Below are positions 37,510 through 61,508 of a DNA stretch of 64,000 bases, one piece after another. The stretch covers positions 196,486-260,485 of the forward strand of contig JAXGPF010000009.1 in NCBI GenBank assembly GCA_040767085.1. The letters run 5' to 3'. Position numbers and translations under genes: made by a program. Within the stretch, counting starts at the first letter, position 1; every line of letters starts with the position of its first letter. The stretch comes from Kiritimatiellia bacterium. Lineage in GTDB: Bacteria > Verrucomicrobiota > Kiritimatiellia > JAAZAB01. The notes beneath the pieces are model-generated. The model saw only the letters and a program-made list of their open reading frames with translations, did no database searches and had not been told where the DNA came from.

Positions 37510-38895
37510 TGTCGTAAACAAATGACTTGGCCGCATAATTAACAAATGATTTGTCCGCTTAAAGCTGTCAGGATGGTGCATTCAAAGGGGGGTTATATGG
37601 ATGAATATCCGAAGGCAGCACTGGAGCGGGCAATGAAGGTACAGGAAGTGATCTTGCGTGCGATTGAAGGGCGGTTAATGTGGTGGGAGGCGGCGGAGAT
37701 ACTAGGTGTGAGCTACCGGACCATGCGGCGCTGGAAAGGGCGCTACGAGCGGTATGGTTACGACGGGCTGCTGGATCGTCGGCGGAAGATACCGGGGCCG
37801 CGGCGCGTGCCCCTTGCGACGGTGAAGCAGGTGCTGAGGTTGTACCGAGAAGAATACATGGATTTCAATGTGAGGCATTTTCACGAGAAGCTGCAGGCGG
37901 AGCATGGGATCGAGCTCAGTTATCAGTGGGTCAAGAGCGCCTTGCAGACGGCCGGGTTGGTGGCGAAGGCCCGGAAACGAGGGCCGCATCGGCAGCAGCG
38001 GGAACGGCGACCAATGGCGGGGATGATGTTGATGGTGGATGGCAGCACCCATGCCTGGTTGCCCCTGCTGGCGGGCCAGAAGCAGGATCTGATCCTGGTG
38101 ATGGACGATGCCACCAGCGAAGTCTACACGGCCTATCTTGTGCCCCAGGAAGGGACATTAACGGTGATGAAGGGGTTGAAAGAAGTCATTATTAAACATG
38201 GGGTTTTCTGCAGTCTGTACACGGATCGTGGCAGTCATTTCTTTTATACGCCCAAAGAAGGCGGGGCGGTGGACCGGCGTCAATTGACGCAAATTGGACG
38301 GGCGTTGCAACAGTTGGGGATCGAACATATTCCGAGCTATAGCCCCCAGGGACGTGGGCGAATAGAGCGGATGTTTAAGACCTGGCAAGGGCGCCTGCCG
38401 CAGGAATTAAGGCAGGCGGGAATCCGGACGATGGCCGAGGCCAACGTCTATATTCAACAACAGTTTCTGCCTTCCTTCAATCGCAACATGAAGGTGAAGG
38501 CGCGGGAAACAGGAACGTGTTTCGTGCCTTGCGGTGAGCAGGATTTGGACAGCATTTTCTGTGTGCAGCATGCGCGAGAGGTTCAAAATGACAATACCGT
38601 GGCTGTCGGGAGTCGCCGCTTGCAGATTGGACCATCAAAATGGCGTTTCAGCTTCGCCAAGTGCCGGGTTAAAGTCTGCGAGCACCTCGATGGCACGGTG
38701 TCCATCCGTTATGGCCCGCATGTGGTTGGCCGCTACCAAGGACCGTTGAACATTTCGGCGTCGCTGGAGGACGTCGCATAAACTTTTTCCTCCCCCGCGG
38801 GGGAGGAAAATCCTCACCCCAGGAGCAACAACACACAATAACAAATCGGACAGATCACTTGTTACAAAAAGCGGACACTTGACTTGTTACGAACA
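37510..38895 (+). mobile_element. Insertion sequence, IS1202-family-like (formerly ISNCY)
   Basis: TGT...ACA ends, imperfect IRs (TGTCGTAAACAAATGACTTGGCCGC vs TGTTCGTAACAAGTCAAGTGTCCGC), 15-bp direct repeat TGGTTTTTTTAAATG at 37495-37509 and 38896-38910. Confidence 0.9.
37597..38781 (+). CDS. DDE transposase (HTH plus integrase core)
   Basis: EAAEILGVSYRTMRRW HTH; VDGSTH, YTDRGSHF, GRIERMF triad. Confidence 0.93.
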   Translation: MDEYPKAALERAMKVQEVILRAIEGRLMWWEAAEILGVSYRTMRRWKGRYERYGYDGLLDRRRKIPGPRRVPLATVKQVLRLYREEYMDFNVRHFHEKLQAEHGIELSYQWVKSALQTAGLVAKARKRGPHRQQRERRPMAGMMLMVDGSTHAWLPLLAGQKQDLILVMDDATSEVYTAYLVPQEGTLTVMKGLKEVIIKHGVFCSLYTDRGSHFFYTPKEGGAVDRRQLTQIGRALQQLGIEHIPSYSPQGRGRIERMFKTWQGRLPQELRQAGIRTMAEANVYIQQQFLPSFNRNMKVKARETGTCFVPCGEQDLDSIFCVQHAREVQNDNTVAVGSRRLQIGPSKWRFSFAKCRVKVCEHLDGTVSIRYGPHVVGRYQGPLNISASLEDVA

Positions 38896-39220
38896 TGGTT
38901 TTTTTAAATGGAGCCAATTTCAAAAGTCCCCCGGCGGGTTTATCCCGCCGGAGACCAAGGTTATGCAAAACGCCACGTGTTGCTCAAAAACAACATCTTG
39001 TATTTTTGCATGACCTTTCGTTCCTGCCACGCAAGGTGGCAGGGGACGACTTTTGAAATTGAATCACTGGTTTTTATATAATAATTCGCGGCATTTTCCC
39101 GAATGCATTCCGGTTTTCCCTTGCCGTTTACGCATGCCGCTTGCGGGCAAAGTTTTGCGCTTGCCGCGCCCTGGCGTGGATTGAATGATCCGGCTCCGAG
39201 CGCCATTTTTGGCGGCGGCT

Positions 39221-39463
39221 TCAATCGTCAAGCTTCCCGGCTTTATCCAGTGGGATCGGTTCATGCTTCTGAATTTCAATGGCGCTTTGCCGCTGGCGAT
39301 CATTCGGCTGAAAGGCATCCACGAGCGCCATCGTGACATCCACCAGCTCCGCCGACTTGTACCTCGCCAGGGTATCCTTGTCCCACTTGGAGACAATTAA
39401 GCCGACGTCCGCAGCCTTGGCAATCTCCGGCATCTGATCCTTGATGTGCAATTGACTGGTCAT
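39221..39463 (-). pseudogene. 80-aa ORF, possibly the C-terminal remnant of a larger (OmpH/Skp-like?) protein
   Basis: ATGA overlap with the GAF gene stop; HIKDQMPEIAKAADVGLIVSKWD...VDVTMALV reads like a C-terminal half. Family assignment is from memory only. Confidence 0.3.
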
Positions 39464-40143
39464 TCCCATGCCCCCATCTCCATTTTGTAGCATTCCGGGC
39501 AGATTCCGTGCGAAAGCATGGTGCCGGAGATATCACAGACGTATTCTTCCACCGTAACCCATTTGCCTGTTTTCCCTCTGATTTTCTTGCAATAGCTGCA
39601 TATCGGATATATTTTACTTAAATCATCGAGCAAACGGTCGCGGCGGTTTATTTCCTCTCTTGCTAAAATGATTCGAAGCGATAATTCAATCATTTTTTTA
39701 ATCTGCTCGACCAGTCTGATGTGCAGGTCATTATGCGCATTCTGCTTGTTGTCTATGAAACAGACTGTCCCGAACTGCCCTCCATCGGGGCGGTTGATCG
39801 GCAGCCCAAGATACGAGATCATATGCAGGTCGACGGCAGCAGCATTATCCTTCCAACGGACATCTTGTGTTGCATCAGGAATCAGATTAAGGCCTTTGCT
39901 CTTCAGTGTATGTTCGCAGAACCATCCGGAATTCGGGTAGCGGGATTTGAACGCTGTGGAATATGGATTGTTTTCCGTCTCGCTGGATAGAAGAATCTCG
40001 ATTTCCTCCCCGTCCACGCGGGTAATCAGCCCGGCCGGAACACATATAATCTTAGCCGTATCGTTAAGCATGTTTTGCCATTCTTGCAAAACATCCTCGG
40101 TAAGCGTTTTATGATCGAAAGGGTTCGCATCCAGATTCTTCAT
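39460..40143 (-). CDS. GAF-domain protein with C-terminal Cys-rich domain
   Basis: SYLGLPINRPDGGQFGTVCFID GAF motif; PICSYCKKIR...LSHGICPEC; GAGGAGG RBS. Confidence 0.85.
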   Translation of the reverse strand: MKNLDANPFDHKTLTEDVLQEWQNMLNDTAKIICVPAGLITRVDGEEIEILLSSETENNPYSTAFKSRYPNSGWFCEHTLKSKGLNLIPDATQDVRWKDNAAAVDLHMISYLGLPINRPDGGQFGTVCFIDNKQNAHNDLHIRLVEQIKKMIELSLRIILAREEINRRDRLLDDLSKIYPICSYCKKIRGKTGKWVTVEEYVCDISGTMLSHGICPECYKMEMGAWE

Positions 40144-40278
40144 ATCCTCCTCTCAACAACAGGTTTGTCGGCAATCAGGACAAGTTCAGCCTTCACGCGC
40201 TGAGGAAGCCGTACCCGGCGCATTTGCCGGAGCGTAGCGCGCCGGGGAACGGCACGGCTTGGTCCCTGGTTCTGCAGT

Positions 40279-40791
40279 TTACCGCTCTTGCTCCGTCGCC
40301 GGCTTTGCTTGTTTGAGTTCTTTGGTCAGGGCTTGGATTTTTGGCATGATCTGCATCATTATCTTCTGGGTTATTTCCATGGACCGTTGCATCAATTCCG
40401 GCTGCTTCTTGATGAATGCCTGGCCGGCCGGGGATTTGTAGAAGGCGACCGTGTCCTTCAACTCCTGCTCGGTGAACGTTTCCGCATAAAGAGCAATGTA
40501 GTCGCCCTTCATCTTCTCCCAGCTCAATTCCGCGGCGATCATGTCCATCATCTTTTCCATGTGGCCGATCGCATTTGCGGGCATGTTCGTCGCGCCCGCG
40601 GTCTCTTTCATTTTTTCCATCTGCGCCGGGATCATTTGCTTCACCATTGCGAATGACTTTTCAATGGTGTCCTGCATGTTCATGAGAGTCAGGAGTTCTT
40701 CCGCTATTGCACGGCGCTGCGTCTCTTGCGCATGCACTCCGCACACTCCCATCACCAAGATCGCCGCGATCGAGCTGACCATCCTGATCAT
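40279..40791 (-). CDS. DUF2059-like exported protein
   Basis: Signal peptide; LYAETFTEQELKDTVAFYKSPAGQ motif. Confidence 0.8.
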   Translation of the reverse strand: MIRMVSSIAAILVMGVCGVHAQETQRRAIAEELLTLMNMQDTIEKSFAMVKQMIPAQMEKMKETAGATNMPANAIGHMEKMMDMIAAELSWEKMKGDYIALYAETFTEQELKDTVAFYKSPAGQAFIKKQPELMQRSMEITQKIMMQIMPKIQALTKELKQAKPATEQER

Positions 40792-40960
40792 ACCGCCTCC
40801 TCTTTTCCGACTCCGGGACCTTCTCGTTTTCGGCCAGGCACATGGGTCCCTTGCATGTTGCTGTCGCAGGCGGCGCGTTGCGGTGTACGGTCCGGCCGCC
40901 GGCTTAATGCTCGTCTCTCTTTTATATTTGCTTCCCGGCAATTACACAGAGTCATGCCGA

Positions 40961-42025
40961 TCAAACGCGGGCATAATGGATGGTGAACAGGGCAAAATAC
41001 TCATCGTCATAACAACTGGAATCGCACCGGCATTCGAATTCCGGCCGTAATTCCTGCTCGAACAATGCCAACCATTGCCGGCGCAGCATGTGGTAATCAT
41101 TGCGGCAGCCGCGCGCCTGGGTCAGCAACGAAACCACCTCGGTCATCAGGAACCGGTCAACGCAATCCCGGGCGACTTCCACCGGGGCGTCATGCGAGAA
41201 CACAAAATCGGTCATCCGGGCATAGGATTGATAAATTGAGAGAGCCAATTCCGGCGTGTGCAGTTCAGGCAAATCATTATTGGCATCCAATTCGAACAGG
41301 ATCAAATTATCCAGATGCGGTTTTAATTCGCGCAAATGCGCAATTTTCTGTTCATAAGTCATATGGTGATAGGAAAGCGAACAGACGGCCAGATCGAACA
41401 TCCCTTCCAACCGGCCGGCGATTTCTTCGATCCGACCTTGCAGCACATTGATTTTCGCGCCGGGCAACGCCCCGCCCACCGTGCGGCGGGCCAGTTCCAG
41501 CATGCCGGCGGACGGATCAACCAGCAGAATTTCACCGATGTCGCCTACCCGCCCGGCATCGCGGAGATGTTGAAGCAGGCGGACGGTGAGGCCGCCGTCG
41601 CCGCAGCCAATATCCAGCATGCGCAGCGGTTTTTTCCGCGCTGACAGCGAGTGGGCGCATTGCTCCATAAATTTCCGGCGCGATTCGCGCATGACCGGCA
41701 CGGTGGTAAAATGCACATACGGCCGCGGATCGGCAAACACCTGTTCGGGCATTGCCAGGCGGCCGGCGTGCCGCTCAAGGAACCCGGTCAAAAACGTGTT
41801 CAAAAACAGTCCGTCATCCTCAATCATGGCGCCGGCGGTCATCCAGGCGCGGCCGGCGTCGGTATTGCCACCGGCCGCCAGCATGGTTCCGCAGTAAAAA
41901 TCGAATGCCGGACGCAGGTTGTTCCGCGCGGCATAAGGCGATTGCCCGGGCGCCAGGTTGTTTGCGCGGATTTCATCGAACCAATCAACCCATTGTTTTT
42001 TTTCAGCTGAAGACAAAAACAACAT
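40961..42025 (-). CDS. Class I SAM-dependent methyltransferase
   Basis: MLDIGCGDG, VDPSAGML, SLSYHHM. Confidence 0.85.
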   Translation of the reverse strand: MLFLSSAEKKQWVDWFDEIRANNLAPGQSPYAARNNLRPAFDFYCGTMLAAGGNTDAGRAWMTAGAMIEDDGLFLNTFLTGFLERHAGRLAMPEQVFADPRPYVHFTTVPVMRESRRKFMEQCAHSLSARKKPLRMLDIGCGDGGLTVRLLQHLRDAGRVGDIGEILLVDPSAGMLELARRTVGGALPGAKINVLQGRIEEIAGRLEGMFDLAVCSLSYHHMTYEQKIAHLRELKPHLDNLILFELDANNDLPELHTPELALSIYQSYARMTDFVFSHDAPVEVARDCVDRFLMTEVVSLLTQARGCRNDYHMLRRQWLALFEQELRPEFECRCDSSCYDDEYFALFTIHYARV

Positions 42026-42065
42026 GCCGGTCTCCTTGTCTTAAGCGCAATCAGACTCACGGCCC

Positions 42066-42122
42066 GGCCAGGCACTGCGCGCCTGGCCGGCAAGCCGGAC
42101 ACGCGGTGCCCGGCAGTTCGGC
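42066..42122 (-). repeat. Truncated attC (outer arm of the long family) closing the mazEF cassette
   Basis: Inverse core GCCGAAC (42122-42116) about 10 bp after the mazF stop; adjacent ~50 bp homologous to 47320-47370. Confidence 0.7.
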
Positions 42123-42132
42123 CTCCATTTTC

Positions 42133-42474
42133 TCAAAATTCGAGCAGTGCCCCGACTTTGTTCAGAACCTCCTGCACGGTTTCTTCCGGGACGCGACACA
42201 GAAACGTTGCCCCGCGCATATGCCAGTCCATGCTCTTGACCTGATCGGAGAGTGCTGCTCCCGATGCCTTTAGCCCCGCTGGAATCAGTACCTCGAAAGG
42301 ATATCCCTTGATTTGATTTGTGAGGGGGCATAGGATTGCCAGACCTACCTTGCGGTTGTAGGACTCGGGCGACAGGACGAGGGCTAACCGATGACCTGCT
42401 TGCTCATGTCCTGCCTGCGGGTTGAATGAAATCCACACAACGTCACCTCGCTTCGGGCAGTACGCGGGCATCAC
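42133..42474 (-). CDS. mazF: MazF endoribonuclease toxin
   Basis: PKRGDVVWISFNPQAGHEQAGHRLALVLSP..YN, KGYPFEV, DQVKSMDW. Confidence 0.93.
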   Translation of the reverse strand: MMPAYCPKRGDVVWISFNPQAGHEQAGHRLALVLSPESYNRKVGLAILCPLTNQIKGYPFEVLIPAGLKASGAALSDQVKSMDWHMRGATFLCRVPEETVQEVLNKVGALLEF

Positions 42475-42716
42475 CAGACCTCCCGTCCCACAGCCGCGCC
42501 GGTCTTGACCTCCGAATGGACATTACGTTCTGTCACACCTTTGAGCAGATCTTCCAACCGGGGCTTTGGCTCCGCATGCCGGGGTTCAATAACGATCTTC
42601 CCATCGTTGAGGAACAGATTGACCGGTGTCCCATAAGCAACGCGAGCCTCTTCGACAAACGCCTTGGGAATTCGAACCGCCAAGCTGTTTCCCCACTTTT
42701 GAATCTTCGTTTGCAT
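42471..42716 (-). CDS. mazE: MazE (AbrB-fold) antitoxin
   Basis: MQTKIQKWGNSLAVRIPK, C-terminal VGREVW; overlaps the mazF start. Confidence 0.93.
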   Translation of the reverse strand: MQTKIQKWGNSLAVRIPKAFVEEARVAYGTPVNLFLNDGKIVIEPRHAEPKPRLEDLLKGVTERNVHSEVKTGAAVGREVW

Positions 42717-42731
42717 GATCCCCCCCCTTCC

Positions 42732-42772
42732 GTGTCTACAAAGAAGATACGACAAAGCGCACCGAGAAACAA
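42732..42772 (-). promoter_or_regulatory. mazEF promoter/operator
   Basis: TTGTTT-N17-TATCTT with an overlapping imperfect palindrome GTATCTTCTTTGTAGACAC. Confidence 0.65.
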
Positions 42773-42785
42773 GAACTTTCCTCCC

Positions 42786-42845
42786 GCCGAACGTCCCGGC
42801 ATCATGCTGAGCGCGTAGCGCGATCGCATGATGCCATTATTCGGT
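42786..42845 (-). repeat. Short attC site (60 bp)
   Basis: ACCGAAT-AAT-GGCATCATGC...GCATGATGCC-GGGAC-GTTCGGC; begins at the stop of the upstream ORF. Confidence 0.72.
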
Positions 42846-43741
42846 CATTTTATTTGTCGGATACCTAGGCCTGGCCCTTGTTCCTGCAATGAAGTTGTTG
42901 AGCGCCCCTGCTTCTGTTTTGCACCAAGCGTTTTAATCTTTGTTTGGCCTGCTGCGCATGGAGGGGTACGGGTTCCATAGATGATGTAATTGTTGACGTC
43001 GTCAATCGTAAACCCGGCGGGAGTCATGTCGGCGATAAAAACACCAAGCGGGTGGCGGTTGGAGCCGAATTTATCACGGCCTGCTTTTTTGGCAACATCA
43101 ATTTGGAGTTTCATCAACTCCCAGCTAACGGCGGTTTTCATATCGTGTCCCGTGTACACGCTTAGCCCGATCACAGGTTTCGTCCCGGCGCTGTAGTTTG
43201 TAAGGCATAATATTATCCAATCATAGATTTCGGCCGCGGTTGTTTTCTTTTCGCAGGTCGGGTATGTCATCTCCACAAGCTGAAGCCGCGGATGGTTCGC
43301 GATAATGGCGAGCGCGGCGGGATCCCAGGTCAGCCTGTTATTCCATTGAATCACCGAAAGCCCCGCCCGCTCGTCAATGCTGTTAACAAACTCCTGCGCC
43401 TGCTCTGCGCCGGTCTTTGCCGACCAGTTCTCATGGTCGGTGGCCAGGAGCCGGGCATTTTGAGCGTAATTATCCTTGATGCCCTCGATGCAAGTGTTGA
43501 TCTTGTCGGTGTCGCCAACCTGCCTGTGCATGCGCCGCGCTTCATACTCTTTCTTGTATGGGCCTTGATACGCAATGGTCCACGATGCCACCATGTTCGC
43601 GGTTTTACAGTTGGCCCGGCCATGCGCGTTGCCAATCCACCAATGAACAGGATATGCCGCGGTATCGTCCGCCGGCGCGGGCATCGTAAGCATCGATACT
43701 GACAGAACCACCGCTATTCCAGCGCGCCATAATGTTTTCAT
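42845..43741 (-). CDS. Hypothetical secreted protein (cassette ORF)
   Basis: 298-aa ORF with signal peptide and lower GC; no recognised family. Confidence 0.7.
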   Translation of the reverse strand: MKTLWRAGIAVVLSVSMLTMPAPADDTAAYPVHWWIGNAHGRANCKTANMVASWTIAYQGPYKKEYEARRMHRQVGDTDKINTCIEGIKDNYAQNARLLATDHENWSAKTGAEQAQEFVNSIDERAGLSVIQWNNRLTWDPAALAIIANHPRLQLVEMTYPTCEKKTTAAEIYDWIILCLTNYSAGTKPVIGLSVYTGHDMKTAVSWELMKLQIDVAKKAGRDKFGSNRHPLGVFIADMTPAGFTIDDVNNYIIYGTRTPPCAAGQTKIKTLGAKQKQGRSTTSLQEQGPGLGIRQIK

Positions 43742-44060
43742 ATTTGTCTATCTGAAACAATCAACTTCCCGACGCTCTTAACGCATTCCTGATTTATTTC
43801 ATTCGAACCGTATTATCATTTTATAGGACCCTCTGCCTGATCATTTTAAATAACCCTCTGTCTGCCCTCTGTCTGCAAATATGCTTCACGTCTTGACGCG
43901 CCGCCGGTAATTCAACAGTTACGCTGGCCAATTCCGCGCGCTCCATCCCGAACCATTACCCTATAGGGCGCGTTGTCCCACACGCGTCTTCATGAACCAT
44001 GGATTAGTCACCGACCCCTCGCGGACTCGGAGTTGGAACTAATCCTTGTTTTGTTGAGCC

Positions 44061-44534
44061 TCAGTTGTCATCGGTGTAGACGATCTGAGGCTTTCCGTCG
44101 CGTTCTTTGAGCACAAGCACCAGCAGTCCATGCCCCGATCTCTCGGACACGCTGAAAACCAGGAGGCAGCCGATCGCGTCCTCCATCTGTCCGGCGACGC
44201 GCGTGTCTTTCCACATATTGTCAGGATAGCGTCCGTCAAGAGTGGCCACGTCATCACCTCGAAAAAATATAATCTCCTCGATTTGGAAGAGGCGGAACAT
44301 GGCCGGGTCCTGGTTGCGCAGGGATTCAACCGCGGATCCCTTGCCTCTTCCTTTTATCTGGGCATCCGGATGAAAGAATTGCAGAGCGTACTCCCGGTCC
44401 CCCTCCAGGATGAGAGCGTTTATCGTCGCCAAGGCAACGCGTCGGGCGACACGTTCATCGGGGACACCCGCGATAGCCTTGGACACGATCACTCCTGTCA
44501 GCATGATGGCGGTCAACATACGAGCATGGTTCAT
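44061..44534 (-). CDS. Hypothetical exported protein (cassette ORF)
   Basis: [10 protein letters not shown], signal peptide; starts just after the GTTGGAC core site. Confidence 0.7.
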   Translation of the reverse strand: MNHARMLTAIMLTGVIVSKAIAGVPDERVARRVALATINALILEGDREYALQFFHPDAQIKGRGKGSAVESLRNQDPAMFRLFQIEEIIFFRGDDVATLDGRYPDNMWKDTRVAGQMEDAIGCLLVFSVSERSGHGLLVLVLKERDGKPQIVYTDDN

Positions 44535-44557
44535 TCCTGTCTCCTTTCGTTCCTGTG

Positions 44558-44707
44558 GTCCAACGGTGAACTGTTGATCGCAACTGACGGAGACCGGAAG
44601 CTTGGCTTCCGGGCGCACGTCAATTGATCTCAACGGCTATTTAGACCAGGCGCTACTCGCCTGGCAGGCAAGCCGTGCAAGCTGTGCTCGCAAGTTCGCC
44701 GTTAGGC
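44558..44707 (-). repeat. Long attC site (150 bp)
   Basis: GCCTAACGGCGAACT...AGTTCACCGTTGGAC; homologous to 46773-46920 and 47233-47379. Confidence 0.8.
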
Positions 44708-44849
44708 GGCGGTCAGGCGTGTGGTAAAGCGTCGCCTGCACCGGCTAATTCGGCTGTGGCTTCTGTTTCCACGGGTTATCTTCAATGCGCCCGCCGGTGT
44801 CACCCCGGATCGAAGCGCCGTCAAATCAGCCACCATGGCGTACGGGCGA

Positions 44850-45977
44850 TTAAGGCAACCACTTTTTGACCATTATACTTGCAACTTCATCAACAGCTTG
44901 CTCGGCATCTGAGCCGCCAATGTTGGTTGCGATGACGACGGCAAAATCCTTCTCCGGCGCGAGCCAGATACTCATGTACCAGAACGTATTTGAGCCGTTG
45001 TGCCAAAGCGCCTTCCCGCCTGCCCAGTCGCGTTTGAAGCAGAGCCAGCCGCAGGCATAATCACCGCCTTCCGGCGGGGTGTGCAGTTTCCGAACGGTCT
45101 CCGCCTTCAATAAGCCGTCTTCCCTCTCGCCTTCCATCGGGAAGATCGCGTAGCGCGCAAGGTCGTCCAGCGAACAATGCACTCTACCGGCAGGCGCAAT
45201 CGCGGGCGGATTGTCCTTCTGACTCGGAGTCGTAAAACACAGCGTCTTGGTATGGCCCCAAGGCTGATCAACTTGGTTCTTCGTTCCGGGAGGGCCGAAT
45301 CCCGCGGACTCCATGTGCAGTGGCTTGAAAAGCTTCTCGATGATGAGAGACTCCCACGAAAGACCGGATATCCTTTCCAGCATCGCGCCAATGATCGCGT
45401 AACCTTGGTTTGAGTAGATCATCTTCGTTCCCGGCGGAGCTGCTAGCGGTTTGGCAAGAACGGCTTGTATGAACTGCTGACGTTGTTGTGCCGGCGTGCC
45501 ATTCTCCTCCCAAGCGCGCACCCACGCGAGCGTGGGTGGCTTGCCCGGAACGCCGCCACGATGCGTGAGCAACTGCTCGACTGTCACGGTCTCATACTGC
45601 TTGTCCATTTTGCCTTTCCAATCTGGGAACACCTCGGCAATGGCGGTATCCCAGCGCAACCGGCCTTCCTCGATGAACATGGCCGCAAGCGTTGCCGTCA
45701 TGGACTTGGTGCAGGAGCCTATGTGGAACTGGTCATTGGTTGTAACCGGAGTGGGATTGCCGTTCTTGCGGACGCCCAAGGCGCCGCGGTCGCAGATCTT
45801 GCCGTCTTTCACGACAACGACGGCCAGTGCAGGTAATTTGTGCTTGTCGCGAATCCCCGCCAATGCCTGCATGGTATCCAGAGATGATGCTGGCGTGACC
45901 GGGACTTGAGCCGCTACCTGGAACGACAGGCACAGCGCCACGACCGGAATTCCATACAATCCTTTTCGCGATCTCAT
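44850..45977 (-). CDS. Serine hydrolase, beta-lactamase/AmpC-like family (cassette ORF)
   Basis: SCTK (SxxK), YSN, HNGS; signal peptide. Confidence 0.88.
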   Translation of the reverse strand: MRSRKGLYGIPVVALCLSFQVAAQVPVTPASSLDTMQALAGIRDKHKLPALAVVVVKDGKICDRGALGVRKNGNPTPVTTNDQFHIGSCTKSMTATLAAMFIEEGRLRWDTAIAEVFPDWKGKMDKQYETVTVEQLLTHRGGVPGKPPTLAWVRAWEENGTPAQQRQQFIQAVLAKPLAAPPGTKMIYSNQGYAIIGAMLERISGLSWESLIIEKLFKPLHMESAGFGPPGTKNQVDQPWGHTKTLCFTTPSQKDNPPAIAPAGRVHCSLDDLARYAIFPMEGEREDGLLKAETVRKLHTPPEGGDYACGWLCFKRDWAGGKALWHNGSNTFWYMSIWLAPEKDFAVVIATNIGGSDAEQAVDEVASIMVKKWLP

Positions 45978-45997
45978 TTACTGCCCCATCCCTGCGC

Positions 45998-46052
45998 CGC
46001 CCACGTTCCGGCGCACCAGCGGCGCGATGAACGACGCAGGCGCCGGTTGTTG
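45998..46052 (-). repeat. Short attC site with damaged core (GT-GGGC)
   Basis: CAACAAC 3 bp after the stop, CCGGCGC/GCGCCGG stem, ends ...GGAACGTGGGCGGC. Confidence 0.6.
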
Positions 46053-46055
46053 GTC

Positions 46056-46760
46056 TTACGGGTTCCCTAAGTATGTCGCAGGAATCTTCGTCTCCTCAAT
46101 GGCGCCTTCAACCTGCCGGACTCTATACGCCAGCGCGCCAGGCCTGGAACTCACAATATGAGCAAGTTTCCGCCCTATAAAGTGCAGAGCCACACCATCG
46201 TCTGCAGCCAGACCGGCCTTCATGCGCCCTTGCATGATGAATCCCTGGTACGCAGGCCGTCGTGTTGACTCGCCGTCATAGTGAGGACTGTGGCTGCCGC
46301 GCAGAAAACCAAGGCACGGCAGGACCGTCAACTTGCCCGGGACAGAGTCCGTCAGCCCCTCATCAAACCAGCAAATCGAACCGGCGCTGATGCCGCCAAG
46401 GAGCACGCCCTTCCGCCAAGCCTTGCGGAGAATCCGGTCCAATCGCCATTCGCGCCAGAGGGCGAGCAGGCTTTTCGTGTTCCCGCCACCGACATAGATG
46501 GCGTCTTGCGACAGGATGAAGCCCTCCAGGTCTGCGGGCGGGCGAAACATCGAGAGGTGGGTGGGCGTGCAGGGCAACTGGTTGAACGCCTCATAGAATT
46601 TCACGATGTAGCAGTCAGCATCGCCCGATGCGGTAGGCACAAAACAGACGGCAGGTTTCCTCTTCCCGGTTTGCGCAAGGAAATATCGGTCCAGAAGCGG
46701 GTTATCGGGTTCCATCGAGAACCCGCCGCCACCCATCGCAATGATCTGTTGTCTTTTCAT
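46056..46760 (-). CDS. Peptidase S51 (dipeptidase E-like) (cassette ORF)
   Basis: IIAMGGGGFS, FVPTASGD, IYVGGGNT, GISAGS, PHYD. Confidence 0.9.
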   Translation of the reverse strand: MKRQQIIAMGGGGFSMEPDNPLLDRYFLAQTGKRKPAVCFVPTASGDADCYIVKFYEAFNQLPCTPTHLSMFRPPADLEGFILSQDAIYVGGGNTKSLLALWREWRLDRILRKAWRKGVLLGGISAGSICWFDEGLTDSVPGKLTVLPCLGFLRGSHSPHYDGESTRRPAYQGFIMQGRMKAGLAADDGVALHFIGRKLAHIVSSRPGALAYRVRQVEGAIEETKIPATYLGNP

Positions 46761-46772
46761 TTTTGTCGTCTC

Positions 46773-46920
46773 GGACAACGGTGAACTGTTGAGCGCAATT
46801 GACGGAGACCGACAACTTGGCTTCCAGGCGAACGGCAGTTGATCTCTAACGGATTGTTAGGCCAGGTGCTGGTCGCTTGGCCGTCAAGCCGGTCGAGTGG
46901 TGCTCTGCACTTGGTTCTGC
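46773..46920 (-). repeat. Long attC site (148 bp)
   Basis: GCAGAAC...internal GCCTAAC...AGTTCACCGTTGTCC; overlaps the 3' end of the upstream ORF. Confidence 0.8.
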
Positions 46921-47216
46921 GATTCCTCTTGTCTGATTGCCTGTTGCCTTCGGTTGCCACAAACAATGCCAAGAGGCAGCAAAATACTGTATGGAATCCA
47001 CATGAACCAGCGGTATGGATTGGGCAATGCAATAAGCAACCCGAGGAAGAGCAGGATAGCGATCCAGCACACGAGTGCCGATTTGATCATGAAAGAATGC
47101 TCGCGTGGCCCGTTGGTGTGTTTGATACTGAAATAGGTTCCGGCGATTCCGCCGGCGAGTCCGATAACGCTCCCGGCGAGTCCGCCAATCCATCCCCACA
47201 TTGCTCCAGTGTTCAT
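46884..47216 (-). CDS. Small 3-TM membrane protein (cassette ORF)
   Basis: GWIGGLAGSVIGLAGGIAGTYFSIKHTNGPRE; three hydrophobic segments; AAAGGA RBS immediately after the core site. Confidence 0.75.
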   Translation of the reverse strand: MNTGAMWGWIGGLAGSVIGLAGGIAGTYFSIKHTNGPREHSFMIKSALVCWIAILLFLGLLIALPNPYRWFMWIPYSILLPLGIVCGNRRQQAIRQEESQNQVQSTTRPA

Positions 47217-47232
47217 TATCATCATCCTTTCC

Positions 47233-47379
47233 GCAGAACGGCGAACTGTTGAGCGCAACTGACGAAGACCGGGAACTTGACTTCCGGGCTAATGGCAGTT
47301 GAGCTCGAAAGGCTTGTTAGGCCACGCACTGCGCGCCTGGCCTGCAAACCGGGCAAGCGGTGCTCGGCAATCTTTGTCG
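47233..47379 (-). repeat. Long attC site, first in the array (outer inverse core degenerate)
   Basis: Internal GCCTAACAAGCCTTTCGAG...CTCAACAGTTCGCCGTTCTGC. Confidence 0.75.
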
Positions 47380-48008
47380 AAATTAATGATGCGCCTGTTT
47401 TCCGAATCTGTCCAGCGTAATTTTTCGCCATTATCCCAGTTTTGAGATGCCTGTGCCTTTTGTGACTAAATATTTCCGGTTTCGGGCTTTTCCCATCTAT
47501 CTGAAACAAACGATAAACACCCACACACTTTATTTTCCGCTCCCTCCTTCGTGCCCTTCGTGTTCTTCGTGGTTAAATCAGAAAAGGGGCAGTATCTGGC
47601 TCTTTCGCGTTCCTTGTGTCTTTTGTGGTGAATTCCTTCCCTCCGTTGATCAAAGGCACAGAGGGGCAAAGTGTTCTGTTTTCAGGCGTAAAACCTTAAA
47701 ACGGTAAACCTTAAAACATACGCCGAACTTACGCCGCCCCCGGTTCGCCCTCCAGCCGGCGGCCGTGGCGCGGACCGCGCTGGCGATGCTGGCCGCGCTA
47801 ACCAACGTACCGGAAAAGAACGGCTCCGTCTTAGACGTCGCCCTACCCGCCCGGCTCCGCGGATCATGCCATGGGCATGACAAGGGCGTTTATCCCGCCC
47901 CTGGCGGGATCGCCCTGCCCGAAAATATCATTTGACAATCTGAAACAATTCCGCATGCTTGCTTGGTTCTTTGTAAATACCGGGACGCCGGATTTAGGTT
48001 CAACTGTC

Positions 48009-48773
48009 ATGCAAACAACTGCGCATTATTTCCGGTTTAAACTGGCATATGACGGCACGGCCTATGGCGGCTGGCAGGTGCAGGCGAATGCTGTCACGAT
48101 CCAGGGCGTGATCGAGCAGGCCCTGGGCCAACTGGCCGGCGCGCCGGTCAAACTGCACGGGAGCGGCCGCACCGACCGGGGCGTGCATGCCATGGGCCAG
48201 GTGGCGCATTGCGCCCTGCCGGCGGGCTGGCAGACGGCTAAACTGGTTCGGGCTTTGAATGCCCTGCTGCCGCCGGATATCCGGGTGATGGGCGCCGCGC
48301 GTTGTGGCCTGCGTTTTCACGCGCGCCGCAGCGCCGCGGCCAAGGAATACCGGTATTTCATATGGAATGCCGATATCCTGCCGCCGGTGCTGCGGCATTA
48401 CCGCGCGCATGTCCGGCAGCCGCTGGACGCGGCGGCGATGCAGACGGCCGCCGCGCGCCTGGAGGGCCGGCACGATTTTGCAGCTTTCGCCGCCAACCCC
48501 AACCGCCCGGTGGAAAGCACGGTGCGCGAACTGTACCGGCTGCAGGTGCGCCGGCGCGGCGCTGAAATCGTCATCATTGCGCGCGCGGACGGGTTCCTGT
48601 ATAAAATGGTCCGCAGCCTGGCGGGGTTCCTGATCCAGGTTGGCGCCGGCGCGGTACCGGCGGCGGCCGCGGATGCGATCCGGCGGAGCCGGGAGCGCAC
48701 CGCGCGCGTGCCCACGGCCCCGCCGCAAGGCTTGTTCCTCTGGCGGGTGTTTTACCGGCGCACCACGGGGTAG
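48009..48773 (+). CDS. truA: tRNA pseudouridine(38-40) synthase
   Basis: AYDGT.YGGWQ, GSGRTDRGVHA.GQ, FHAR, GFLYKMVR. Confidence 0.96.
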   Translation: MQTTAHYFRFKLAYDGTAYGGWQVQANAVTIQGVIEQALGQLAGAPVKLHGSGRTDRGVHAMGQVAHCALPAGWQTAKLVRALNALLPPDIRVMGAARCGLRFHARRSAAAKEYRYFIWNADILPPVLRHYRAHVRQPLDAAAMQTAAARLEGRHDFAAFAANPNRPVESTVRELYRLQVRRRGAEIVIIARADGFLYKMVRSLAGFLIQVGAGAVPAAAADAIRRSRERTARVPTAPPQGLFLWRVFYRRTTG

Positions 48774-49969
48774 TTGCGCAAAAACCCCTTGCGCGGCAGC
48801 GGCCCGACGATCGGCCGGGCATACTCCAGGAAGGCTTCGGTGACGTCGTTGCCGGCGCGGTTGATGAAAGCCGCCGGCATGCTCCGGGTATCCCGCGCCA
48901 CGCTGGACAGGGGCACGCGCTCGAAGGCGATCCGGTATTTCCGGCCGGGCCGGCGCCGCAGAGCGATTGAACCATCCACATCCTTGCCGACGGCGCATTG
49001 CACGGCCGCCGCGCCTGCGGCGCGGGCTTCGGCGGCATCCGCCGGGGCGGCGAGGCCGGGGAAAGACCTTTGCAGGTAGCCGAAGGTATCCGCGCGCACC
49101 CGGCTGATGCCGGCTTGGTCGCGCAGGGCGGCTGCCAGCAGGTCGCCCAGGGCGCCGGAGCCGCTAAGTTGCACGTTACCGTGCGAATCCTTTTCGCAGG
49201 TGAATTTAGCGGCAATGGCCACGCCTTTCGCGTCGGCGATGCCTTCCGACACCACCACCAGGCAGCGGCCCAAGCGGCGATAGACCTGCTGCACATCCTT
49301 GATGAAACGCGGGATGGCAAACGGGCGTTCGGGGAGGTAAATCAAGTGCGGGCCGTCATCCGGGCAACTGCGCGCCAGCGCGGCAGCGGCGGTCAGGAAC
49401 CCGGCATGCCGGCCCATGACTACGTCAATTTTCACCCCGGGGAGCGCGCGGTTATCCAGGTCGTCCCCCATCACCGCACAGGCCACGAACCGGGCGGCAC
49501 TGCCGAACCCGGGGGTATGGTCGTTTTCGCGCAGATCGTTGTCAATTGTTTTGGGAATATGGAAACAACGCAGTTCAAAACCGGACTGGCGGGCTTCTTC
49601 GTTGATGATATGGGTGGTTTCCGCGGAATCGTTCCCGCCGATGTAGAAAAAGTAACGCACATCGTACTTACGCAGAATATTGAAAATCCGGACGCAATCC
49701 TCGTGCGATGGTTTCTTCCGGACCGTGCCGAGCCCCGAGGACGGCGTCGCCGCCACCAGTTCCAGGTTCGCCGGAGTTTCCCGGCCCAGGTTCACCAGGT
49801 TTTCCTCCAGCACCCCGCGGATGCCGTGCCGGGAACCGTAAATCCGGCGGATTGCCTGGTGCCGGCGCGCTTCCAGGACCGCGCCGACCAGGCTTTGGTT
49901 GATCACCATGGTGGGGCCGCCGCTTTGCGCGATCAGCATGTTGCCGTACAATGTCTGCGTTTTACTCAT
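48752..49969 (-). CDS. Phosphofructokinase family protein, probably PPi-dependent (second paralog)
   Basis: AQSGGPT, GGNDS, PKTIDND, MGRHAG, FGYLQR. Confidence 0.9.
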   Translation of the reverse strand: MSKTQTLYGNMLIAQSGGPTMVINQSLVGAVLEARRHQAIRRIYGSRHGIRGVLEENLVNLGRETPANLELVAATPSSGLGTVRKKPSHEDCVRIFNILRKYDVRYFFYIGGNDSAETTHIINEEARQSGFELRCFHIPKTIDNDLRENDHTPGFGSAARFVACAVMGDDLDNRALPGVKIDVVMGRHAGFLTAAAALARSCPDDGPHLIYLPERPFAIPRFIKDVQQVYRRLGRCLVVVSEGIADAKGVAIAAKFTCEKDSHGNVQLSGSGALGDLLAAALRDQAGISRVRADTFGYLQRSFPGLAAPADAAEARAAGAAAVQCAVGKDVDGSIALRRRPGRKYRIAFERVPLSSVARDTRSMPAAFINRAGNDVTEAFLEYARPIVGPLPRKGFLRNYPVVRR

Positions 49970-59799: not shown

Positions 59800-61113
59800 T
59801 CAGGGCTGTGCTTCGTTGGACTGCTGGGCAGCGCCCTGGCGGATATAGACTTCCACGCGGCGGTTGACGGGATTGCCTGCCACTGGATCATTCGCGGCCA
59901 TCGGCCGTGTGAAGCCGTACCCCACGGGCGTCATGCGCTCGCGTTCGATATTGCCTTGCTGGTGCAGGTATTCCAGCACCGCCTTGGCGCGGCGTTCGGA
60001 AAGCTGCATGTTGTACTTGGCGGATGAAGTCCGGCGTTTGTCGGCGTGGCCTTCAATCCGGGCCATGGCTTGCGTATCGCGCGCCAAAACCTTGGCGATG
60101 ACGTTCAAGTCATTGAAATACTGCGGTCGGATCACGTCCTTGTCGGTGTCAAATTCGATATGCAGGGTGAAGAGCATCAGGTCGTCCGCGGGATCCAGCG
60201 GATTGGTGCTGTCCTCGATTACTTCATGGCCATCGGCCACCCCGCCGTTGTCCGTGTCGCGCAGGAGTGGATTGGTCTTGTAGTTATGCACTTCTTCGCC
60301 GTCGGTCAAACCGTCGTAATCCGTATCGGGATTCAGGGGATCGGTGCCATGCACCCGCACTTCCTCGTAATCGGTCAAGCCGTCGCCGTCGGTATCCAGA
60401 TTGTTCGGGTCCGTGCCCAGTGCCAGTTCTTCGGCATCGGTCAAGCCGTCGCCGTCGCTATCCACGGCGCCGCCGGAGGCGCGGTATTTTACCGGCACAT
60501 GCGCGCCCCAGCGCCAGGAAATACCCGCGCTGGGCAGCAGGTTGAACTCAGTGTGTTCGGCGGTGATATATCCGATCAAATCGGCGCGCAGGGACCATTC
60601 GCGGTTGATGTGATAGGCCATCCCCAGGCCGGCGCGGAACTGCACGTCGGCGCGGTCGCGATTTTGGCGTTCCTTCTCGTAATACAGCACGCCCAGCCCG
60701 CCGATCAGGTACGGATCAAAATGCTGGTTATCCATGTTGCGCAGATGGAACAAGGCATCCACGGCCGCGCCCAGCGCAAAGGTGTCTTCGCCATCCAAGC
60801 CCTTGCGCGGCACCGGTACGCCGGTGGCATAATCGTAAACCTCGTTGCGGTCCAACTTGGGGATGTAGGTGGCCACACCCTCGAACGACCAGCGCGGCGA
60901 ATAATCATATCCCAGGCGCAGTGACCCGGCAAAACCGTCCTTGACGGCTTCGTCGCCCTCGTAGTGGATGATGCCGCCGTTCAGGCTGACATACCAGGGC
61001 GCATGGGCTTCCCCGGCAACGGCTTCCTCCTGCTGCGCCCAGGCCGCGGTAGCCCCCAGCAACACACAACTTATTCCCGCGACCGCCGCCAGCTTGCCAA
61101 TCTTGCAACTCAT
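59800..61113 (-). CDS. OmpA-family outer membrane protein (beta-barrel, Asp-rich Ca-binding repeats, OmpA-C)
   Basis: Signal peptide, four D(S/T)DxxGxxDxxE repeats, IEGHAD, LSERRA, NRRVE. Confidence 0.9.
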
Positions 61114-61508
61114 CGCCCTCTCCTCTTTAGAATAACGTTTAATCTGTAACATACATCATGCAACCGCCATTACTGTGATTGATGAATAGCACAAACCATA
61201 TCAGGATTGCAAGAAAATTATACGTATGGGGACACGACTGCGTCATTCTCGGAAAAGACGGCCATTCAACCGGGCGCATGGCAGGCTTGGCAGGGATCAC
61301 GCCGATGGCGTGACAAGCGTCTTTATCCCGCTGCGCGGGATCGTTCTGCCATTTTGGCCAATCGGCCTGAGGTGGGGGAACCGCCAGCCTGCCAAGTCGC
61401 GGGCAAGTCCCGGGCGCGCCGCAAGCATGACGCAGCCGTGGCGTATTGGGCGGATGCGGTGGCCTTGGGCTTGACAATCCGCATGGCGTCTGTCAAATTC
61501 CACGCATT

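Follow-up and report, generated by a model that had tools for sequence, protein, structure and literature searches.

Recognition of attC sites depends on their shape and not on their sequence, and the attC of aadA7 provides a reference for the layout of the classical short site. The attC lengths given in two published accounts range from 57-141 bp, and the same accounts describe Vibrio cholerae repeats (VCRs), in which a 31/34-nt stem closes a 65-nt branched terminal structure, as well as some attCs and VCRs whose most stable fold is non-recombinogenic, with a probability of the recombinogenic fold (pfold) of 1e-5 to 1e-7 and poor excision (PMC2727003, PMC5371416). Two-state attC hairpins, in which the balance between states tunes recombination, have been reported in PMC6393395, and the account of Cury et al. 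2016 (PMC4889954) describes attC clusters that have no integron integrase (CALINs) and reports integrons in Verrucomicrobia. Here we analysed a family of ~148-nt repeats in a 64,000-nt stretch of DNA from a Kiritimatiellia bacterium (contig JAXGPF010000009.1, positions 196,486 to 260,485 of the forward strand), which we refer to as the window and to which plain coordinates below relate. We conclude that the repeats are attC sites in a minus-strand cassette array without a neighbouring integrase, that is, a CALIN, and that they form a real attC family of an unusual dual-arm, three-way-junction form, which is a modest variant of known attCs and has few copies.

Using repeat finding and blastn, we located three homologous ~148-nt units on the minus strand of the window, at 44558-44707 (copy a), 46773-46920 (copy b) and 47233-47369 (copy c), with pairwise identities of 80-81% over 130-138 nt. 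These are the three homologous ~150-bp sites described in an initial annotation of this DNA, and they were found at the places it gave. The repeat search of the window itself returned a 138-nt pair at 80% identity and a 90-nt triple at 72-100%. Read on the plus strand, the units start with an R'-side core (GTCCAAC at 44558-44564 in a, GGACAAC at 46773-46779 in b and GCAGAAC at 47233-47239 in c) and contain an inner core, which is GTTAGGC in copies b (46856-46862) and c (47316-47322), corresponding to GCCTAAC on the minus strand, and a degenerate TTTAGAC in copy a (44640-44646). At a distance of 5 nt from each inner core lies an L''-like GTTAGAG/TTTCGAG that is able to pair with CTCAAC, and both the inner-core positions and the classic spacing to L'' proposed earlier were reproduced. 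An outer core ends copies a (GTTAGGC, 44701-44707) and b (GTTCTGC, 46914-46920). Copy c is the first site of the array; its outer arm is incomplete, the repeat homology stops at 47369, and alignment and core inspection revealed no GTT after this position, hence the outer core is absent. The suggestion that each full copy has two cores thus applies to two of the three window copies, a and b, but not to c. A fourth, partial copy (d) matched the other units at 42066-42115 with 76-88% identity in the repeat search and by alignment spans 42041-42122 on the minus strand, comprising an L' remnant, a hairpin termed B, an outer L''-like segment and the core GTTCGGC at 42116-42122. The initial annotation had regarded it as an outer-arm-only copy at 42066-42122; a partial copy does exist there, but a left-arm remnant beginning at 42041 is also kept, and judged from its alignment copy d reads as a deletion derivative that has lost the R'-side arm.

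The attC identity of the repeats is well supported. The AAC at the left edge is invariant in 11/11 aligned copies and the repeat homology begins exactly there, the four bases before it vary, and the start codon of the next gene follows within a few to ~25 nt. Such an invariant AAC with variable preceding bases is the signature of an attC R' junction. Copies a, b and d as well as two metagenome contigs, L074 and L075, have a GTT core in the outer position; a GTT core in the inner position is found in b and c and again in both contigs. The site is located at the 3' end of co-oriented cassettes, and its R'' is the complement of the cassette start at 7/7 positions in b, d, L074 and L075 and at 4/7 in a. 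R and L boxes are pairable in the outer fold of a, L074 and L075 and also in an inner fold (see below). In addition, the plus strand folds more stably than the minus strand in 5/5 copies and contains more G than C in 5/5 copies, both of which match the bottom-strand bias published for attC sites (PMC5371416). The recombining bottom strand would be the plus strand of the window, and strand exchange would occur at the left end, at xxxxAA|C, within 44558-44564, 46773-46779 and 47233-47239; for copy c the crossover would fall between 47238 and 47239.

Contigs L074 and L075 carry the complete unit, homologous from the left AAC through +25 nt to GCCTAA|C, and at GCCTAA|C a different canonical ~60-nt attC starts in each of them; the flanks differ on both sides. 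Given these crossover-type junctions at both ends, the shared segment represents a ~175-nt gene-less cassette, which contains no open reading frame (ORF) and occurs in two different cassette contexts. According to our reading of the sequences, the short neighbouring attCs in both contigs carry extra bases on the 3' arm, on the same strand. The gene-less cassette, at 238-409 in L074 and at ~963-1133 of the reverse-complement reading of L075, amounts to the long attC and 19 nt more, and includes a 13-nt G+C palindrome.

That the repeats are not attCs at all, and instead represent an intergenic repeat of the miniature inverted-repeat transposable element (MITE) or repetitive extragenic palindrome (REP) type or a structured 5' leader RNA, appears very improbable to us. 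Start codons do follow immediately downstream of the elements, many other dispersed repeats occupy intergenic sites of the genome, and an integrase is not adjacent. However, a search of 38000-49000 and of two other loci against Rfam 15 yielded nothing relevant at E<=1, and a promoter and terminator scan of the window copies yielded counts at shuffle level, with nothing inside the elements. Membership in a MITE or REP class is further opposed by the distribution of the repeat, which by blastn occupies only 7 places in the host genome, all oriented with the downstream gene and with no flanking duplication. The AAC-delimited boundary, the layout of core and inverse core, the canonical attC neighbours and the cassette-type cargo all fit attC sites.

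The proposed anatomy of an intact site is that of one long attC of ~148 nt with three parts. The first part would be a closing stem formed by the R box, GGYGAACT and the L' segment GTTGAGCGC paired with the far L''-like GTGCTCGGC; the second would be a branched terminal structure of two hairpins, the distal hairpin A and a 62-nt hairpin B arm; and the third would be the R'' partner, namely the outer GTT core just past the conserved block. In the best-kept copy, L075, the order on the plus strand is AAC, GGCGAACT, s1 (GTTGAGCGC), distal hairpin A, s2 (GAGCTCGAAC) and GGCTT, followed by the inner GTTAGGC leading into hairpin B, CAAGCA, s3 (GTTCGAGCG), s4 (GTGCTCGGC), AGTTCGCC and the outer GTTAGGC. 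Segment s1 pairs with s2 or s4, and s2 pairs with s1 or s3, and these alternative partners result in two mutually exclusive folds, so that the two alternative folds anticipated by the initial annotation do exist in silico. In Fold I, a 20-bp closing stem (AAC...s1 with s4...GTT), a distal hairpin A branch and an s2-hairpin B-s3 branch meet in a three-way junction; in the predicted plus-strand folds of well-kept copies, the closing stem measures 12-20 bp and uses the outer core. Fold II is a textbook 88-nt attC, in which the R box is formed with the inner core, a spacer of 8/5 nt is unpaired, s1 and s2 form the L box and a G is bulged, and hairpin B stays free alongside. The inner GCCTAAC and the GTTCGAG(C) at 5 nt from it are both part of the hairpin B arm, where they would mimic a second canonically spaced L''-R'' arm, and by this mimicry the same R'-L' arm could also close the 88-nt hairpin.

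We compared the two folds using single-stranded DNA parameters, with 200 shuffles for z-scores and with a Boltzmann probability for each copy, calculated pfold-style after the method given in PMC5371416. The minimum-energy fold of copy a has -40.3 kcal/mol (z -5.1, 0/200 shuffles as good) and its outer arms pair over ~18 bp, which agrees with the pairing of outer arms earlier proposed for this copy. L074 and L075 fold as Fold I with -61.1 and -67.8 kcal/mol, respectively (z -10.7 and -12.4, 0/200 shuffles as good), and forcing Fold II on them costs 18-25 kcal/mol. For copies b and c, folding gave z-scores of -1.6 and -2.8, respectively, and the outer stem is absent; in b, no outer stem beyond the R box forms in the minimum-energy fold. 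In line with this, the outer R box has a probability of 0.92 in copy a, 0.97 in L074 and 0.98 in L075, 3.7e-3 in copy b and none in copy c, which is without the outer core; the corresponding values for the inner R+L fold are 1.6e-8, 1.7e-14, 2.2e-16, 2.7e-7 and 5.9e-4. The inner fold is therefore predicted to be far less populated, at 1e-8 to 1e-16, where the outer stem is intact. A strong outer hairpin is present in 3/5 full copies but in only 1/3 of those in the window (copy a), and the single-stranded DNA folding that had been suggested as a check on inner versus outer structure favours the outer fold in a but leaves b and c without an outer stem.

These values also bear on the possibility that the element is a true bistable switch, in which both 3' arms are used and the choice between three-way junction and canonical hairpin gates excision or insertion. 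Two mutually exclusive folds do share a single R'-L' arm, each window copy keeps at least one arm (a the outer only, b and c the inner, with the outer weak or absent), and conformational choice is described as a factor that tunes attC activity (PMC6393395). On the other hand, intact copies show an energy gap of 11-22 kcal/mol, which speaks against an equilibrium switch, and the pattern rests on n=3 in an integrase-less genome, where neutral decay gives the same result. We consider such a switch improbable, and assign a similarly low likelihood to a version of it that would depend on the extent of single-stranded DNA (short versus long gap) or on cruciform extrusion from either hairpin tip.

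On balance, we lean towards a reading in which the outer core is the one used, within one long attC. The outer core of copy b, GTTCTGC, is a 7/7 complement of its own cassette start GCAGAAC (47233-47239), and the core of copy d, GTTCGGC, is complementary at 7/7 positions to GCCGAAC (42786-42792), with which the mazEF cassette begins; based on window 7-mer frequencies, the chance of a 7/7 match per 25-nt span is ~1.6e-3 and 4.3e-3, respectively. By comparison, the inner core of b matches its own cassette start at only 5/7 positions and d is without an inner core. Of the 9 pairs that s1 and s4 contribute to the closing stem (columns 22-30), 7 are kept in 5-6/6 full or near-full copies and 2 in 4/6. 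Moreover, two simple 86-nt sites elsewhere in the genome, on contigs C23 (C23b) and C2, carry the outer-type (s4-type) 3' arm GCTCGGCAG and fold as plain attC hairpins, and the outer fold of copy b would have an unpaired 8/5-nt spacer and hence look canonical-like. The initial annotation had also settled on the outer core; the matches in b and d, the conserved arm pairing, the arm of the simple relatives and the R-box probabilities of 0.92-0.98 speak for this view, but the sites are few and copy a does not covary. Likewise, its statement that the outer core covaries with the cassette start is borne out by b and d (7/7 each) and not by a, where the match of 4/7 is at chance level.

Several observations weigh against use of the outer core. 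In copy a the outer core matches the presumed cassette start at a mere 4/7 positions, and copy c has no outer core. The closing stems of a, L074 and L075 are fully paired, with G.T wobbles only and neither a bulge nor an unpaired spacer, and for a VCR deprived of extrahelical bases and given a paired spacer, PMC2727003 states that bottom-strand recombination drops 8.5e4-fold; the canonical bulge and unpaired spacer are instead present in the inner fold, Fold II. The cores of L074 and L075 are not discriminating because inner and outer core are the same 7-mer, and the 3' arm of the simple form aligns collinearly with the inner arm too, if less closely (14/22 versus 18/24 positions, hand count). 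The repeat family is tiny, with copies in 5/33 genomes of the host's taxonomic family, 3/401 genomes of the class and 2 metagenome contigs. Finally, no helix displays real covariation: in the inner fold, 1 pair is changed on both sides versus 2.4 expected (11 copies), in the three-way junction, 4 pairs versus 2.8 expected (6 copies), and a single C-G to T-A change was seen, in hairpin B. The covariation that the earlier annotation had proposed to check among genome-wide copies was thus no better than in shuffles, as the copies are too similar, and the structure consequently rests on complementarity among ~85%-identical copies.

Some weight belongs to an alternative in which the inner 88-nt hairpin is the real attC and the outer ~60 nt are either a cassette-borne clamp on the R'-L' arm, freezing the cassette, or a neutral relic. 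As a clamp, an inverted partial copy of the site's arms would sequester the R'-L' arm in a 20-bp duplex and lower the recombinogenic fold. The inner fold alone has the canonical unpaired features, with the 8/5-nt spacer and the bulged G on the L'' side, and its R''-to-L'' spacing of 5 nt equals that of classical sites; copies b and c retain the inner core and have lost the outer stem; poorly excising attCs with low pfold are documented in PMC5371416; and by hand count, the 3' part of L075 shares ~82% identity with its inner arms when these are read as reverse complement. We nevertheless regard this alternative as doubtful, since it is the outer cores of b and d that match their own cassette starts at 7/7 positions (the inner core of b at 5/7, d having none), the inner core is degenerate in copy a (TTTAGAC) and reads GCAGGC in the copy of a same-genus genome (G021), and for the inner fold a population of 1e-8 to 1e-16 is predicted as long as the outer arm is intact.

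Returning to the reading with one long attC that uses the outer core, we asked how its second arm could have arisen. The simple sites carry an s4-type arm and fold plainly, and comparison with them suggests that the long form corresponds to the simple form plus the 62-nt hairpin arm. When the inner arms of L075, minus distal hairpin A, are reverse-complemented, they match the 3' third of the element with ~82% identity (hand count), which is a restatement of Fold I. We infer that the second arm arose by internal inverted duplication or by insertion of a palindromic hairpin into a simple attC. A fusion of two attCs, left as a relic of a tandem pair or a gene-less micro-cassette in which an 88-nt site and a minimal site with abutting L'/L'' (GAGC-GGT-GCTC) were joined by deletion, seems unlikely to us: although gene-less cassettes consisting of nearly only this element exist (L074 and L075) and a resemblance to L' and L'' of the inner site is seen in the outer segments GTTCGAGCG and GTGCTCGGC, the putative second R' (CGTCAAG) has no AAC, the inner core matches the start of the implied micro-cassette at 3/7 positions (hand count), and the two sites are separated in no copy.

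Regarding the wider distribution of the family, ~13 copies of the repeat are known in all. In the host genome, the left ~68 nt of the unit also occur at C23:106.5 kb, C23:109.4 kb and C2:219.5 kb, and the cargo at these small loci is of PIN/Xre and AbiV type. The simple 86-nt attCs mentioned above are accompanied by ~140 nt more of non-coding homology, giving ~225 nt in total (C23:109434-109660 and C2:219380-219608); this homology ends without a recognisable attC boundary. Of the two loci, the C2 copy alone has an upstream gene, and an upstream partner core looked for at the simple C2 site was not found. A scan of genome contigs with a 17-mer returned 54 stretches, only 2 of which extend past the seed (nhmmer E 9e-18 and 7e-8); among the matches listed, 46 other stretches had E-values of 3e-4 to 0.15 and comprised the seed only. 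In the DNA search of relatives, the order contains the same 33 genomes as the family, and the 401-genome sample of the class contributed no additional copies. Since hairpin-sized deletions are found in copy d and in a copy of another genome (G022:C10), the family is structurally plastic.

We next consider the integrase. In the host genome (95% complete, 28 contigs) no match to the integron integrase (IntI) model TIGR02249 over the cut-off was found. The best match scored 101 bits versus a cut-off of 265 and is a 96-aa open frame covering model positions 225-303, located at L001 1516-1806 (C23:~307.1 kb), distant from the three attC loci. On its sequence, this frame appears to be an intI relic, reading as the C-terminus of IntI with the upstream part not detected. 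TIGR02249 matches over the cut-off were obtained in 15/33 genomes of the host's taxonomic family versus 0/14 control genomes. Given that an intact IntI is absent from the genome, the sites in the window are probably decaying relics, a status consistent with each window copy having lost one of its two arms. The IntI matches in the family genomes are open frames of ~370-515 aa versus 315 positions in the model, which suggests that family integrases are extended at the N-terminus or preceded by in-frame sequence. Next to two same-genus intI copies (G021:C38 and G019:C4), the genes looked operon-like rather than cassette-like.

The surroundings of the repeats have the composition of a CALIN, with 4 family sites and at least 1 canonical short site in 42.0-47.4 kb and intI not adjoining. 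All plausible genes between 39.4-47.2 kb are on the minus strand and functionally unrelated, with structured spacers between them, and the array is flanked by truA (47871-48773, plus strand) on one side and by an IS481-like transposase (37546-38781, plus strand) on the other. The first cassette ORF (46884-47222, minus strand) encodes a small predicted membrane protein of ~112 aa without a Pfam match, and its final 37 nt overlap the outer part of attC b; its translation and that of a small membrane-protein ORF in L074 are unlike by eye. Cassette 2 (44850-46778, minus strand) holds two ORFs, for a peptidase S51 (46056-46778) and a serine hydrolase of the beta-lactamase fold (PF00144, 44850-45977), and no convincing attC was seen between them. 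Further along, a minus-strand toxin-antitoxin cassette encodes the antitoxin MazE (42471-42755) and the MazF/PemK toxin (42133-42474), and co-oriented cargo continues with a methyltransferase (40961-42025), a DUF2059 protein (40279-40941) and a GAF-domain protein (39460-40143); together with two unknowns, these products make up the cargo of the array.

Between mazE and a 298-aa ORF lies a canonical ~60-nt attC-like hairpin (42786-42845, minus strand; minimum free energy -21.1 kcal/mol) whose R box is 5 bp long (CCGAA/TTCGG) and whose spacer, of 6 versus 4 nt, is unpaired; the stem has at least 10 bp. This site was overlooked by a simple scan for AAC...GTT hairpins, its own 3' core being ATT. 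In the remaining array spacers, the same scan gave tentative sites only. One, at 43991-44060 (minus strand) after ORF 44061-44541, has the ends CATGAAC/GTTGAGC and is weak, with a minimum free energy of only -9.0 kcal/mol and an R box that is unformed in this fold; another tentative attC-like site of ~125 nt, at 40151-40275 (minus strand) between the GAF and DUF2059 genes, ends with GTTCTGC at 40269-40275.

At the head of the array, a chromosomal segment of 79 nt at 47381-47459 (minus strand, upstream of truA) is conserved, with 77% identity in a same-genus genome (L100 12525-12603), where its counterpart precedes a different minus-strand gene. The sole promoter-like match pointing into the array (TGGACA-17-CATCAT, 47414-47386) is at chance level. 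The genes that precede truA in two same-genus genomes lie here on contig C2 (199.5-204.3 kb). As these genes are on another contig and copy c adjoins conserved DNA that elsewhere is next to a different gene, the array is located, relative to same-genus genomes, at a synteny break upstream of truA, with its first site truncated. The IS481-like transposase, with HTH_28, HTH_32 and LZ_Tnp_IS481 domains, bounds the cassette region at its far end, where it is encoded on the opposite strand, and could mark the edge of a rearrangement.

The spacer between the array and truA (47480-47760) is made of short dispersed repeats, among them CTTCGTG three times (47547, 47556 and 47565), a GGTTAAATCAG...TCTTTCGCGTTCCTTGTGTC block and AAACCTTAAAAC twice. 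These repeats have ~95 blastn matches on ~20 contigs, often clustered (C2:10-23 kb, C7:4-7.5 kb, C26:9-18 kb), and are a genome-wide REP/MITE-like family; one repeat of this type adjoins the attC at C23:109.66 kb. The 14-nt string TCTATCTGAAACAA occurs at 43749, just upstream of the start of ORF 42845-43741, and at 47494 in the array-head spacer. Outside the array, four tandem repeats of ~66-69 nt (63-100% identical to a reference copy) at 60220-60464, within the minus-strand ORF 59800-61152, look like a repeated protein motif.

As attC recognition follows shape, natural sites in which one arm allows two shapes lend themselves to testing the recognition rules of the integrase, in particular how the unpaired spacer and bulged bases contribute and how well branches are tolerated, and they bear on the idea that folding probability sets cassette mobility. 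If true, a dual-arm switch would provide a built-in structural gate on cassette excision and capture, and the dual-arm form would be a snapshot of attC growth by inverted duplication. The practical value is modest, given a small family in a single environmental Verrucomicrobiota lineage and an array that is integrase-less here. The sites nevertheless document attC types for a phylum that is outside the 11 taxon-specific attC models presented in PMC8352920. The initial annotation had not recognised the architecture as described; long branched, low-pfold and two-state attCs are in print, but for the inner element, a second canonically spaced L''-R'' arm inside the terminal structure of an attC, we found no description in open-access full text.

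When compared with known systems, the array resembles the CALINs of PMC4889954 in having at least 2 attC sites, no intI nearby, a small size and cargo not dominated by resistance genes, and we see no difference in kind, the present array being placed at the synteny break upstream of truA. The ORF-less cassette of L074 and L075 is reminiscent of the gene-less cassettes of Vibrionaceae superintegrons as presented in bioRxiv 10.1101/2023.11.21.568050, from which it differs in that no promoter-like signal was detected in the present element when the window copies were scanned. Sites of the short type are neighbours of the family in L074, L075 and the window (42786-42845), and relative to the classical 59-base elements, as represented by the attC of aadA7, the inner fold has the same succession of R'', 5 nt, L''...L', spacer and R', with an unpaired spacer and an extrahelical G on the L'' side. 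Unlike in these classical sites, the spacer here is 8/5 nt instead of about 6/5, and the inner core lies within another 60 nt, which compete for the same arm. With VCRs, as portrayed in the sources cited above, the sites share their great length, an R/L stem that closes a large branched end and repeats that are ~80-90% identical within a genome. They differ from VCRs in their length of ~148 nt, slightly above the 57-141 bp given in those accounts, in their occurrence in only ~13 copies in all and not beside an integrase, in a best-kept closing stem without unpaired spacer or bulges, and in the presence of a second canonically spaced L''-R'' arm within the branched part.

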